A stretch of 64,000 nucleotides of DNA from Nannocystis sp. (GTDB taxonomy: Bacteria > Myxococcota_A > Polyangia > Nannocystales > Nannocystaceae), in assembly GCF_016714285.1 (NCBI RefSeq), contig NZ_JADJNN010000012.1, forward strand, positions 90,040-154,039. Reading direction: 5' to 3'. A program made the position numbers and the translations under genes. Position 1 is the first letter of the stretch; each line of letters begins with the position of its first letter. Positions 8,800 through 26,550 of this stretch are shown here, one piece after another. The notes under the pieces were generated by a model. The model was not told the DNA's origin. It saw nothing but the letters and a program-made list of their open reading frames with translations, and made no database searches.

Positions 8800-9308
8800 C
8801 GAGGCGCGCCGGCCGACCCCGCCGGTCGAGACCTGGGCCTGGAACATCCCGACCGACAGATCGACCCGTCGGCCGACGGCTGCCAGGTCGACGCGGGCAC
8901 CGCCGACTCCGGCGGCCCGCCAGCGAAGCGGGCCGGATGACGCTGCCCAGCGGGAGTTCGAGCCCGCAGAGCCGGAGCAGGTGTCGCCCAAGGGCGTGGG
9001 TCTGCTGATCGGTGGCGGTGTCACGTCATTCTGTGGCGCGCTGGCGCTGTTCGGTGGGCTCGCAATCCGGGCGCAATACGAACCCGAGCCGCCGAAGCCC
9101 ACCCCACTGCGGCGAACCTTGTGCTGGCTTTAGTTTTCCCGAGCCACAGGGGACGGTCCTGCTCGCGGTCGGCACGCTGGCGCTGATCGTGGGGCCGGCG
9201 CTGCTCGGCGTGGGCGGGTACCTGTACCGCTCCAGCAAGAAACTGAGGCCGAGGGTGCAGCGTTCGCTGCACGGGACGTGGACAGCGGGCCTCATGCTCG
9301 AGTTCTGA
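8800..9308 (+). pseudogene. possible frameshifted small duplicated-TM-hairpin membrane protein (very uncertain)
   Basis: Two consecutive frames with coding-like GC3 each encode a similar TM segment (GVGLLIGGGVTSFCGALALFGGLAIRAQYEPEPPKP, then PEPQGTVLLAVGTLALIVGPALLGVGGYLYRSSKK). They are separated by a 1-nt frame change near 9110..9135. The region has lower GC than its neighbours. Confidence 0.2.
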
Positions 9309-9484
9309 TTCGTCTCTGCCATCCGTCCCGGGGCGCGGATGACCCCACACTTCGGCAATTCGCAGGTCACTCAAATCTCCGCCCCAGCCCCTCCGGCGGG
9401 CCTCGGCGCCGCAAGAGTGACCTCCCCGGCCATCGCTACACGCGCGCTTGCGTTAGCGGCGGGCTCGTGCTTTGTGGCGGGCAC

Positions 9485-10429
9485 ATGAAGGGCGTCGAGA
9501 TCGTCGAGGGGCAGGCTTATTTCTCCGGCAGCACGGCGGAGCTGCAGCGGGCGCTGGCGGCGGGGGAGCTCGACGCGTGCGGCTCGCTGGTGGTCGAGGG
9601 CAAGCTGAACGCGCTGCCGCCGGAGATCGGGCGGCTGACGCGGCTGCGCGAGCTGGTGCTCGACACCGACACGCTGCAGGCGATCGACCCGGCGATCTTC
9701 GCGTGCGCGGGGCTCGTGAAGCTGGTCGTGCATTCGAATCAGATCAAGGAGCTGCCGGCGGGCGGCTGGGGTCGGCTGGCGCGGCTGGAGCAGCTCGAGT
9801 TCGCGGGCGCCAAGGCGCTGCGCGGGCTGCCGGAGGACCTCGGGGCGGCGGCCCTGCTCGGCGGGGCCTTCGACCTGCTGCCGCAGACCAAGCTCGCCGC
9901 GCTGCCGCGGTCGTTCGGGCGGCTGTCGCGGGTGACGCTGCTGCGCCTGCCGCCGGGGGTGTCGGCGCCGGATCCGATCGCGGGGATGACGGGGCTGCGC
10001 GAGCTGCGGGTGCGCGGGGTGGCGGCGCTGCCGGAGGACATCGGGGCGCTGCAGGAGCTGCGCTTCGTCGACGCGTGCGAGTGCCCGATCACGCGGCTGC
10101 CGGCGTCGATCGGGGGGGCGAGCGCGCTGCGATCGCTGAGCCTCGGACGCACGCTGGTGACGACGCTGCCGGACAGCGTGTGCGAGCTGCTGGCGCTGCG
10201 AGATCTGGATCTGCAGCAGACGCCGCTGACGGAGCTGCCGGAGGCGATCGGGCGGGTGCCGCTGACGCGGCTGCGCTTGCAGCAGACGGCGATCGTGCGC
10301 CTGCCGGAGAGCCTGGCGACGCCGGCGGGCGACCTGCGGATCTACCTGCCGCGAGATCAGCGGGCGGCGATCGAGGCGAGCTCGGCGGGGGTGCTGGCGG
10401 CGCTCGGCGAGCGGGTGGTGTTCGAGTAA
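9485..10429 (+). CDS. leucine-rich repeat (LRR) protein
   Basis: MKGVEIVEGQAYFSGSTAELQ is followed by about 10 LRR units (LxxLPxxIGxLxxLxxL). The ATG at 9485 follows a low-GC upstream region. Confidence 0.75.
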   Translation: MKGVEIVEGQAYFSGSTAELQRALAAGELDACGSLVVEGKLNALPPEIGRLTRLRELVLDTDTLQAIDPAIFACAGLVKLVVHSNQIKELPAGGWGRLARLEQLEFAGAKALRGLPEDLGAAALLGGAFDLLPQTKLAALPRSFGRLSRVTLLRLPPGVSAPDPIAGMTGLRELRVRGVAALPEDIGALQELRFVDACECPITRLPASIGGASALRSLSLGRTLVTTLPDSVCELLALRDLDLQQTPLTELPEAIGRVPLTRLRLQQTAIVRLPESLATPAGDLRIYLPRDQRAAIEASSAGVLAALGERVVFE

Positions 10430-24486: not shown

Positions 24487-24613
24487 GCGGCGCGGGGCTC
24501 ATCACGGCGCGCGCATCCGCGTCGGCGACGTGGCGCTGCTGGACTGCGAGGCCGGTCGGCTGAGACCGGCCTGGGCGTGAGCCGGAGGTGGCGGGCTTCC
24601 GCTATCCTCGGCT

Positions 24614-26550
24614 GTGATGGTGCGTGGCGTGTTCATGGCGATCGTGCTGCTCGGCTGCGGCGGGGAGCCGGCCGCGATCGCGGGCTCCGAGTCGAGCTCG
24701 GGTGGGGGATCGTCGGAGACCGGGGACATCGTGATCGCGGGGCCTCGCATCGAGCGCTCCACGGCGAGCAGCGTGCCGGGCGGCAGCGTGTTCGTGCAGA
24801 CGGACGAGCCGATCGCGGAGGTGGAGCTGCGGGTCGATGGGGTGCGCTTGCCGGAGCCGCCGATCGTCGCGGCGGGCGGGGCGGGTGACCGCTACGGGGG
24901 GCTGTTCGCGCTGCCGGCCGAGCTGGGGGTCGGCGAGTACGCGCTGGCTGTGCGCTCGCGGGGCGGGGCGGCCGACAGCCATCAGGTCGCGCTGGCGATC
25001 GTGACGCCGAGCTTCGTCGACGTCGCGGCGGCGACCGGGCTGCTGCAGGTGCACGATGTCAGCGGGCACCCGGAGGGCTGCGCGTGGAGCTCGACGGGCC
25101 TCGGCTTCGCGGACATCGACGGCGACGGGGACAGCGACTTCTACGTCGGCAACGTCGGCCGCGCGGGCCGGATGATGCGCAACGACGGCGACCAGGACGG
25201 CGACGGGCTGCCCGACTTCACCGAGGTGACGGAGGCGCTGGGGCTGGCGGGGATCGACAACGTGTCGGCGGTGAGCTTCGTCGACCACGACAACGACGGC
25301 GACCGCGACCTGCTGGTCGGGCGCCGCGGGGCGAACGTGCTGCTGAATAACGAGTGGATCGAGACGGGAGCGCCGGGCTTCGTCGACATCACGGCGAGCG
25401 CGGGCCTGGGGGCCGACGCGCAGCGGACGATGGGGGCGGCGTGGGGCGACTACGACGGCGACGGCGACCTCGACCTGTACGTGGTCAACCACGCGTGGTG
25501 CTTCCCGCGCGAGGGCAGCGAGCTGCGGGCGCAGGACCACCTGTATCGCAACGACGACGGGGCCTTCGTGGAGGTGAGCGCGCAGCTGGATGTCAGCGCT
25601 GACTCGCCGCTGCACTCGCTCGGCTTCTCGGCGGTGTGGATCGACCACGACCGCGACGGCGACCAGGACCTGATCGTGATCAATGATCACATCGCGGGGC
25701 TCGGCGGAGCGAACGCGCTGTGGCGCAACGACGGCCCGGGCGACGCGCCGGGGGCGTGGCGCTTCACCAGCGTGGGCGCGGCGGCGGGCGTGGCGATCGC
25801 GGCGGACAGCAGCGGCGAGGGGGCCAATGGGATGGGGCTGGCGGTCGGCGACGTCGACCGCGACGGCTTCCCGGACCTGGCCTTCTCCAACATCGGCCCG
25901 AACTACCTCCTGCTGAACAATGGCGACGGCAGCTTCCGCGACGCGTCGGCGGCGACGGGGATGCGCCGCGGGCTGCTGGCGTGGCAGCGGCGATCGATCA
26001 CCTGGGCGGTGCACCTCTTCGATCACGACAACGACGCCGACCTCGACCTGTACTTCGCCGGCGGGCCGATCCACGACGACGAGCCGATCCCGGACGCGCT
26101 GCTGCGCAACGAGGGGGCGATGTTCGTCGACGTGACCTGGGAAGCGGGGCTGCAGGAGCTCGGCTCGGGCAAGGGCTCGGCGCTGGTCGACCTCGACGGC
26201 GACGGCTGGCTCGACCTGGCGACGGCGCACTGGGCCCGACCGCTGCGCGTGTACCACAACCGCCGCCCGGGGCCGGCGCACCACTGGCTCGGCGTCGATC
26301 TCGTCGGCACCAGCTCGAACCGCGACGCGCTCGGCAGCGTGGTCGTGCTGGCGACCGCGGACGGACCCGCCAGACCTGCTTTCACACCCAGAGCCCGGCG
26401 CTCGGGGCCGGCGGCGAGCTCGGCTGTCACTTCGGGCTCGGGCCGGCGACGGCGATCGCGGAGCTGACGGTGACCTGGCCGAACGGACAGGTGCAGGAGC
26501 TCGCGCCGCCGGCGGTCGATCAGCGGCTGCGCGTGGTCCAGGCGCCGTGA
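24614..26550 (+). pseudogene. FG-GAP/VCBS-repeat lipoprotein of the CRTAC1/ASPIC-UnbV family; apparent 1-nt deletion frameshift at ~26366..26368
   Basis: The signal/lipobox is MAIVLLGCGG. Many DxDGDGxxD FG-GAP repeats follow. The frame breaks at GTSSNRDALGSVVVLATADGP and the UnbV_ASPIC C-terminus (RQTCFHTQSPALGAGGELGCHFGLGPATAIAELTVTWPNGQVQELAP) continues in the -1 frame after a CCC run. Confidence 0.75.

Follow-up and report, generated by a model that had tools for sequence, protein, structure and literature searches.

The frame breaks that interrupt four genes in the window (the whole stretch of 64,000 nucleotides of Nannocystis sp. DNA analysed here) are probably, judging from sequence comparison, consensus errors of a low-coverage Nanopore R9 metagenome-assembled genome (MAG) that short-read polishing repaired only in part. 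Almost certainly the finding is a data-quality warning and the breaks are not biology; the activated-sludge Nannocystis population most likely carries intact kinase, DUF4157, TSP3 and FG-GAP/ASPIC genes. The genes and their isolated lesions are as follows.

10431..13441, minus strand: Ser/Thr kinase and TPR gene (STK), in two frames here, against a single one of 1002 aa in the sister MAG
13009..13017, minus strand: STK lesion, in alignments to contig L082 an extra 2 nt, CG, at 13016, turning (CG)2 into (CG)3
14892..16480, minus strand: DUF4157/eCIS_core gene, split in the window, whole (529 aa) in JGI and Logan contigs and the sister MAG
15754..15757, minus strand: eCIS lesion, net -1 in the three-way alignment of the window, L082 and L084
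16611..18093, minus strand: TSP3-repeat lipoprotein remnant, in which stretches of 100% identity alternate with scrambled patches, 529-532 aa in relatives
24617..26550, plus strand: FG-GAP/UnbV_ASPIC (CRTAC1-family) gene, in two frames in the window, 644-647 aa in relatives (cluster 3)
26368, plus strand: FG-GAP lesion, one G missing inside the UnbV_ASPIC domain

The broken reading frames of the window match, residue for residue, the NCBI proteins of a contig deposited as "MAG: Nannocystis sp.". MBK7827692.1 (841 aa), MBK7827703.1 (616 aa) and MBK7827696.1 (298 aa), all from one 290,061-bp contig, are exactly the window fragments. The frame switches do exist in the deposited record. Pfam matches above the gathering score (Pkinase with TPR, eCIS_core/DUF4157, TSP_3, and FG-GAP_3 with UnbV_ASPIC) were found in the fragments as well as in the intact orthologues, and in tblastn the STK, eCIS and FG-GAP fragments aligned at 96-99% amino acid identity without stop codons. 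All four genes are intact in a sister MAG of the same species (GCA_016717175.1, JADKFZ01; 98-99% identical), and the eCIS, TSP3 and FG-GAP genes, not STK, are also intact in short-read contigs from Logan, ENA and JGI. In clusters at 90% identity, truncated lengths occur only among the window MAG's own proteins. The comparison with orthologous loci in close relatives, which the first-pass annotation had proposed as a check, thus finds the lesions in no other sequence available for the species.

In STK, the Pkinase domain is divided, with Pfam profile positions 1-91 in one frame and 109-199 in another, and tblastn with the intact orthologue placed residues 1-141 in frame -1 and residues 141-581+ in frame -3 at 99% identity, switching at about 13019. 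The C-terminal 841 aa (10434-12956; MBK7827692.1, an exact match to P0001) are annotated by GenBank as 'tetratricopeptide repeat protein'. The split had been ascribed to a CCCC run at 13013..13016; the frame switch is there, but the lesion is an added CG and not a change in the length of a G/C run. Two substitutions fall within the same 9 nt and two more lie close by. The sister MAG is the sole close comparator at this site, and no third-party sequence spanning it exceeded 67% identity. The DUF4157/eCIS_core gene likewise switches from frame -1 (residues 1-241) to frame -3 (residues 244-529) in tblastn; its N-terminal fragment in the window, MBK7827696.1, has 298 aa, and the cluster members P0133, P0135 and P0136 have 529 aa each. 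On the gene strand the lesion reads CGCAATTCGGCC -> CGC-ATCTGGCC, that is, AATTC>ATCT at 15756 (also written AATT>AT), with no change in G/C homopolymer length. The break suspected at the DUF4157 junction (15750..15757) was therefore verified as a frame switch at 15754-15757 by tblastn and alignment, but its homopolymer cause was not.

The FG-GAP/ASPIC gene is represented by an N-terminal fragment of 616 aa (MBK7827703.1), with the last 60 aa in another frame; Pfam detects FG-GAP_3 and UnbV_ASPIC positions 30-67 in different frames, and tblastn agrees. Here the change is GGACCGCGCCAG -> GGACC-CGCCAG, in which a lone G is lost from CCGCGCC, thereby making the CCC run (26366..26368) that had been taken as the cause. 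The switch at 26368 stands, but the run-length miscall does not. This lesion is an isolated difference, the sole isolated coding indel in 10.3-34.5 kb, and neither L082 nor any of three short-read contigs (L086, L088, L089) lacks the G.

The TSP3 locus is of another kind. What had been described as a 'TSP3 lipoprotein' and a separate 'Cys-rich gene' is a single TSP_3 orthologue of 529-532 aa; both frame switches exist (17724-17745 and 16856-16861), but no one-base correction restores the protein, since about 10 scrambled patches rather than two frameshifts interrupt it, and the GGG run at 17750..17752 proposed as a break point lies 5-26 nt from the real lesion. The patches are located at 16611-16632, 16656-16727, 16856-16861, 16941-16976, 16999-17000, 17020-17061, 17075-17305, 17485-17535, 17724-17745 and 18043-18074. 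They are rich in deletions, and together the window copy shows 174 indel columns (net -112 nt) and 71 substitutions, as well as an in-frame TGA at 17265-17267; the patch at 16941-16976 lost 15 nt with 0 substitutions. Substitutions at the three codon positions number 21/34/16, without third-position bias, versus 36/22/92 in the other genes (chi-square p = 1.2e-8), and local divergence in the patches reaches about 30%, compared with a third-position divergence of roughly 1-2% elsewhere (92 third-position substitutions). We also considered that the patches were a collapsed consensus of co-existing strains at variable sites and rejected it, as inside the patches the short-read contig L083 has the same sequence as the relative and there is no association (odds ratio 0.87, Fisher p = 0.46).

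The sister MAG carries reciprocal breaks in genes that are intact in the window.

4453..10387, no strand assigned: reciprocal control region, whose genes are whole here and lose their frame in the sister MAG
4453-4515, no strand assigned: Lhr helicase, out-of-frame stretch in the sister MAG
6115, 6743, 6844, 6993 and 7110, no strand assigned: radical SAM gene, 5 deletions in the sister MAG
8020-8035 and 8263-8282, no strand assigned: MORN-like gene of 210 aa, frameshifted in the sister MAG
10188 and 10387, no strand assigned: LRR gene, frameshifted in the sister MAG

Both the window and the short-read contig L096 carry the radical SAM, MORN-like and LRR genes intact (tblastn with short-read contig proteins), and in this region a 146-aa fragment contrasts with a length of 553 aa in each of four other sources. 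The GC content per codon position backs the window's frame for Lhr (0.87/0.53/1.0, against 0.53/1.0/0.87 in the relative). Several of the sister MAG's indels shorten G runs (G6->G5 at 6844, G5->G4 at 10387, G4->G3 at 8027 and G3->G2 at 6743).

Outside TSP3, all 14 polarised frame-breaking events are indels, 11 of them deletions and 3 insertions, and 0 among about 625 substitutions create a stop codon. Within 1.66 kb, the radical SAM gene of the relative has 5 indel events and 4 substitutions; the 27 kb at 36.7-64 kb contain 1 in-frame indel and 150 substitutions. The ratios of indels to substitutions, that of the pure-deletion TSP3 patch included, are non-evolutionary. A GC3-frame HMM and the full comparison detected no further frame break at 36.7-64 kb. 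Elsewhere the two MAGs differ like real strains: 61% of the substitutions between them fall at third positions, and the remaining coding indels either keep the frame or are offset within a few codons. In each assembly, about 4 of the approximately 50 genes compared across the window are broken at less than 1% divergence; at that rate, every 9.6-Mb genome would contain hundreds of fresh pseudogenes. The breaks thus show the hallmarks of artefact, being indel-dominated, deletion-biased and function-blind, with other loci hit in the sister assembly.

The accession JADKFZ01 belongs to the WGS block JADIXX... of Singleton et al. 2021, and by its accession block and naming the window's own MAG probably comes from that study too. 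There, PromethION R9 reads were called with Guppy 2.2.3, assembled with CANU (corMinCoverage=0) and polished with Racon and twice with medaka, and the last step was Racon with Illumina HiSeq X reads, all with --include-unpolished (PMC8012365). Among the rows listed in the MAG table of that study, the Nannocystaceae are JADJEE and JADJRA, with coverages of 9-12x Illumina and 13-17x Nanopore. Frameshifting indels are reported in R9.4.1 MAGs below about 40x (Sereika et al. 2022, PMC9262707), and Singleton et al. 2021 itself states a residual-indel caveat (PMC8012365). A GcvP scan of genome contigs gave a best match of 70% amino acid identity and no close relative, and an Rfam scan of the window returned no matches.

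We suppose a local failure of consensus and polishing; since Illumina polishing was applied, the errors are assumed to sit where it failed. Very low read depth, DNA of 72-76% GC and the keeping of unpolished windows would be the setting, which may leave isolated 1-2-nt indels in STK, eCIS and FG-GAP and, in TSP3, bursts of raw-read-like garbage between perfectly polished stretches. The overall picture resembles the known fragmentation of gene calls by Nanopore R9.4.1 indel errors (IDEEL-type truncation; PMC9262707, PMC8012365), as both involve indel-only and deletion-biased breaks, genes intact in other assemblies, fragments annotated as separate proteins and, in the sister assembly, errors in G-run length, and the source here is probably a low-coverage long-read MAG as well. 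It differs in that the window's isolated lesions occur at a CG dinucleotide repeat, at AATT and at a lone G, and in the dense TSP3 patches, whose 30% or so of local divergence and A/T loss go far beyond the usual error of a polished consensus. Homopolymers are the commonest site of Nanopore error. It counts against the artefact reading that the window's three isolated lesions lie off homopolymers, that the TSP3 divergence exceeds ordinary consensus error and that the broken genes are all of accessory type (signalling, toxin-like, surface), which genuine gene loss would favour too.

The alternative that survives best, although we consider it unlikely, is that the lesions are genuine and very recent strain-specific pseudogenes, the kinase, the DUF4157 toxin-like gene, TSP3 and FG-GAP having been lost by small indels. 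The lesions are present in a deposited and Illumina-polished record, the genes they hit look dispensable, and MurG, GcvP, MoeA, TyrRS, RF and others are unbroken. Moreover, the STK and eCIS lesions are each accompanied by a small group of substitutions; such groups also occur in intact genes and resemble recombination tracts. Slippage at (CG)n and AA/TT is a natural type of mutation as well. As in bacterial frameshift pseudogenes, single small indels split conserved reading frames and the downstream part is still coding-like; unlike them, the window and its sister show unshared lesions, reciprocal breaks, and implausible indel-to-substitution ratios and per-gene rates, and they show no nonsense mutation. 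The sister MAG has a similar number of breaks in other genes, including the Lhr helicase, the lesions recur in no other sequence, and neutral decay cannot yield the local divergence and pure-deletion patches of TSP3 against so low a third-position divergence. A narrower version, that some lesions are genuine and one activated-sludge population very recently inactivated the four genes, with an unusual localized, deletion-rich and GC-enriching mutational process at TSP3 that also spawned poly-G tracts, seems to us doubtful and slightly less probable still. If the lesions were true, they would represent ordinary strain-level gene loss.

Classical homopolymer-length miscalls, in which each break is a G/C run one base too long or too short, are a far less probable explanation. 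The first-pass annotation had counted six events, all at homopolymers, and had blamed indel errors of pyrosequencing, Ion Torrent or uncorrected long reads. A sequencing or assembly error from uncorrected long reads, rather than biology, is the part of that account that we retain; the homopolymer-length mechanism is not, and the count also falls, as events 3 and 4 sit in one heavily scrambled gene. None of the window's own lesions is a change in G/C-run length relative to the intact orthologues, and TSP3 is scrambled, not run-shifted. The sequence has one G/C run of 3 or more per 26 nt, and 43% of positions lie within 5 nt of such a run, so that finding every event at a homopolymer is the chance expectation; in DNA of 72% GC, nearness to a short G/C run is uninformative. 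Furthermore, one-nucleotide deletions remove singleton bases in 70% of cases (58% background) and A/T in 51%, the DNA being 27% A+T. Homopolymer concentration thus fails for the window's lesions but holds for about 5 of the relative's, including the four G-run shortenings at 6844, 10387, 8027 and 6743; about 5 of the 14 polarised events fall in G/C runs of 3 or more, versus 12.8% expected.

Two further readings, programmed ribosomal frameshifting and phase variation at contingency loci with simple-sequence repeats, have no more than a superficial likeness to our data, in that the frame changes at short repeats in genes for surface or secreted proteins and the window has poly-G tracts. They can be set aside with near certainty: the orthologues, 90-99% identical, are single uninterrupted reading frames, no slippery X_XXY_YYZ heptamer was seen by eye at the three junctions, long repeat tracts are lacking there, the lesion repeats have only 2-3 units against about 7 or more in a contingency locus, and the poly-G tracts are absent from relatives.

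If the breaks are consensus errors, as we favour, some of the proteins in a public 'high-quality' MAG, and in its RefSeq and UniRef entries, are truncated or chimeric, such as the kinase tail MBK7827692.1, and the assembly also holds scrambled stretches and spurious poly-G tracts. Pseudogenes, phase variation, G-tracts and gene content mined from these genomes should be treated as artefacts until the reads are checked. Three further features of the window are listed below.

8590..9445, plus strand: window-only segment of 855 nt, replacing 63 nt of the sister MAG and of the ENA contig L096
33490..33516, plus strand: poly-G tract G10-CC-G15, intergenic, about 25 nt inserted in the window alone
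56831..56846, plus strand: G16 tract, GGGGGTGGGGGTGGGG in the sister MAG; on the minus strand this amounts to two synonymous changes in Pro codons

Neither the window nor the relative contains a second copy of the 855-nt segment. It holds the sixth event of the first-pass annotation, a putative 2-TM reading frame whose frames may switch near 9110-9135, as a weak shift in GC phase suggests; a homologue search with it gave no matches. As for the poly-G tracts, the advice to distrust their lengths was justified, as all three are window-specific and absent from relatives. An origin in two-colour Illumina artefacts during polishing was rejected, since the study used HiSeq X. The third tract, a G9 at 17510-17518 within a scrambled TSP3 patch, stands in place of conserved codons whose sequence the relative and L083 share, and the 228-aa protein encoded across the G16 tract at 56831-56846 is 100% identical to that of the relative.

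The window is chromosomal DNA of 72% GC, with genes including MurG, GcvP, TyrRS, RF and MoeA. Because all frames stay open over long stretches at this composition, ORF lists alone are useless, and the gene map was built from a GC3-phase HMM and stop-to-stop ORFs, with the codon-position GC of the window genes (about 0.76/0.50/0.95) marking the true frame. Three GC3 phase changes in the HMM, at 13014/13015, 15754/15755 and 26363/26364, come with no stop codon, while the remaining same-strand phase changes in the window all fall at stop codons and are ordinary gene boundaries, as comparison confirms. 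By Pfam, the catalytic domain of the Ser/Thr kinase (STK) is divided between two frames, with Pkinase profile positions 1-91 in the first and 109-199 in the second, and the break in the FG-GAP protein is followed by UnbV_ASPIC positions 30-67.

The whole window was aligned to 69,870 nt, rebuilt from five loci, of a contig (JADKFZ010000003.1, GCA_016717175.1) carrying proteins 100% identical to GcvP and MurG. Its identity to the window, just 97.6-99.2%, marks this contig as that of a sister strain or assembly rather than the source. Four genes broken in the window are intact in this sister MAG: STK-TPR (1002 aa), eCIS_core (529 aa), TSP_3 (532 aa) and FG-GAP+ASPIC (644 aa). Three of them carry isolated lesions:

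13016, STK: an extra CG (2 bases) plus substitutions inside 9 nt, from alignment to the sister contig
15754-15757, eCIS: net -1, AATTC to ATCT, from alignment to the sister contig
26368, FG-GAP: a lone G lost in an otherwise identical context; the sister MAG and three short-read contigs agree

The TSP3 gene in the window is instead a mosaic, with about ten scrambled patches set between stretches that match the sister MAG at 100%. These patches are about 30% divergent, A/T-losing and deletion-rich, and they contain 174 indel columns, a net change of -112 nt; one shows 15 deleted bases and 0 substitutions, and in another a G9 tract (17510-17518) takes the place of conserved codons. The gene also holds an in-frame TGA, and its 71 substitutions have no third-position bias (21/34/16 versus 36/22/92 elsewhere, p = 1.2e-8). 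Collapsed consensus of mixed strains was tested for these patches and not supported.

The first-pass annotation had read six single-base frame switches at G/C homopolymers as sequencing errors. Five of the switches are real; the sixth, in a putative small membrane protein near 9110-9135, has a weak GC-phase shift as its sole support. The TSP3 lipoprotein and the "Cys-rich gene", taken there as separate, are a single gene of 529-532 aa in four other sources. The artefact reading was right in substance, but its mechanism and detail were not, as no window lesion is a change of G/C-run length relative to the intact sequences. Runs of 3 or more G/C occur once per 26 nt in the window and 43% of its positions are no more than 5 nt from such a run, so the association of lesions with homopolymers is at chance level. 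With all indels pooled, 1-nt deletions fall at singleton bases in 70% of cases (58% expected) and preferentially remove A/T.

Otherwise the two MAGs differ in a way that resembles true strain divergence. Ordinary substitutions are third-position biased and grouped in short tracts, the remaining coding indels keep the frame or are compensated inside a few codons, and 36.7-64 kb of the window differs from the sister MAG by 150 substitutions and one in-frame indel. Substitution tracts occur in intact genes at 20608-20635, 29713-29729, 26992-27019 and similar places; MurG has 4 substitutions in 28 nt, yet its protein is 100% identical between the MAGs. Such clusters look like recombination tracts imported among co-existing strains. 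The only other gene rich in indels (65 columns), encoding a 320-aa hypothetical protein (33515-34480, minus strand), has indels whose lengths are for the most part divisible by three (+15, +9), and its product is full-length with 90% identity; this region appears naturally length-variable.

The key result is reciprocity: the sister MAG is broken where the window is intact.

Opposite 4453-4515, Lhr helicase: frame lost over 15 codons in the sister MAG
Opposite 6115-7113, B12-binding radical SAM protein: five deletions within 1 kb, against 4 substitutions, in the sister MAG
Opposite 8020-8282, MORN-like gene (210 aa): split in the sister MAG
Opposite 10188-10387, LRR gene: a +1/-1 pair with 200 nt between in the sister MAG

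In Lhr, GC by codon position is 0.53/1.0/0.87 in the sister MAG versus 0.87/0.53/1.0 in the window. The radical SAM protein has 553 aa in the window and three short-read sources and is fragmented in the sister MAG, where the annotation lists one piece as a hypothetical protein of 146 aa (IPO88_09525). G-run errors of the classical kind, for example G6 to G5 or G5 to G4, account for several of the sister-MAG lesions. The 14 polarised breaks outside TSP3 in both MAGs comprise 11 deletions and 3 insertions, and nonsense changes, sought among the roughly 625 substitutions outside TSP3, amounted to 0 created stop codons.

The cluster of frame switches in the window is no biological feature, and its best-supported cause, which we consider very probable, is local failure of consensus or polishing in a low-coverage long-read MAG. 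It is unlikely that the three isolated lesions are genuine recent pseudogenes: the four broken genes are all accessory-type and (CG)n or AA/TT slippage occurs naturally, but the reciprocal breaks, the indel-only spectrum and the rate of breakage, 4 of about 50 compared genes per assembly at a divergence under 1%, argue against it. Programmed frameshifting or phase variation is contradicted by orthologues that are single ORFs, and inspection of the junctions revealed no slippery site or long repeat.

Consensus failure is also consistent with the source pipeline. In the accessible portion of Supplementary Data 3 of Singleton et al. 2021 (PMC8012365), the WGS prefix JADKFZ lies within the block JADIXX..., and the Nannocystaceae MAGs among the matches listed have depths of 9-12x (Illumina) and 13-17x (Nanopore); we infer from the accession blocks and the naming that the window's own MAG comes from the same study. 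That study base-called PromethION R9 reads with Guppy 2.2.3 in flip-flop mode, assembled them in CANU 1.8 (corMinCoverage=0) and polished the result first with Racon, then in two medaka rounds and finally by Racon on HiSeq X reads, setting --include-unpolished at each of these steps (PMC8012365). A later study by the same group reported that R9.4.1 MAGs below about 40x bear frameshifting indels, many of which are compatible with "high quality" MAG status (PMC9262707).

The broken window ORFs and their intact neighbors match, residue for residue, proteins of a 290,061-bp "MAG: Nannocystis sp." contig, so the frameshifts are already in the public record:

10434-12956, MBK7827692.1 (841 aa), named "tetratricopeptide repeat protein": kinase tail starting within the catalytic domain
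15587-16480, MBK7827696.1 (298 aa): out-of-frame C-terminal tail
24617-26464, MBK7827703.1 (616 aa): out-of-frame C-terminal tail

Frameshift fragments stand in GenBank, RefSeq and UniRef as ordinary separate proteins, not as pseudogenes. The finding is of low interest except as a warning on the public MAGs involved and on protein entries taken from them.

The putative membrane ORF lies inside an 855-nt segment (8590-9445) present in the window only, with 63 nt in its place both in the sister MAG and in a short-read contig from ENA. Searches of this segment found no duplicate, homologue or Rfam match, and it stems from either a misassembly or an insertion specific to this strain. The earlier caution on poly-G lengths was well placed: the three long G tracts are all specific to the window, and therefore their lengths, perhaps even their existence, are untrustworthy. 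The G10CCG15 tract (33490-33516) corresponds to 25 inserted nt when compared with the sister MAG, and the G16 tract (56831-56846) reads GGGGGTGGGGGTGGGG there, with two synonymous Pro-codon differences. A two-colour poly-G artefact was ruled out, the platform being HiSeq X.

The window also has a very strong strand asymmetry, with a GC skew of +0.17 across 1-50 kb and a third-codon-position skew of +0.3 to +0.58 in genes of either orientation, which is real because short-read contigs of related strains share the skew (0.15-0.18). The skew drops to about 0 past roughly 52 kb, and at 57555-61756 the third-position skew is negative; the change near 50000-57000 may be an inflection at an origin, a terminus or an inversion boundary.
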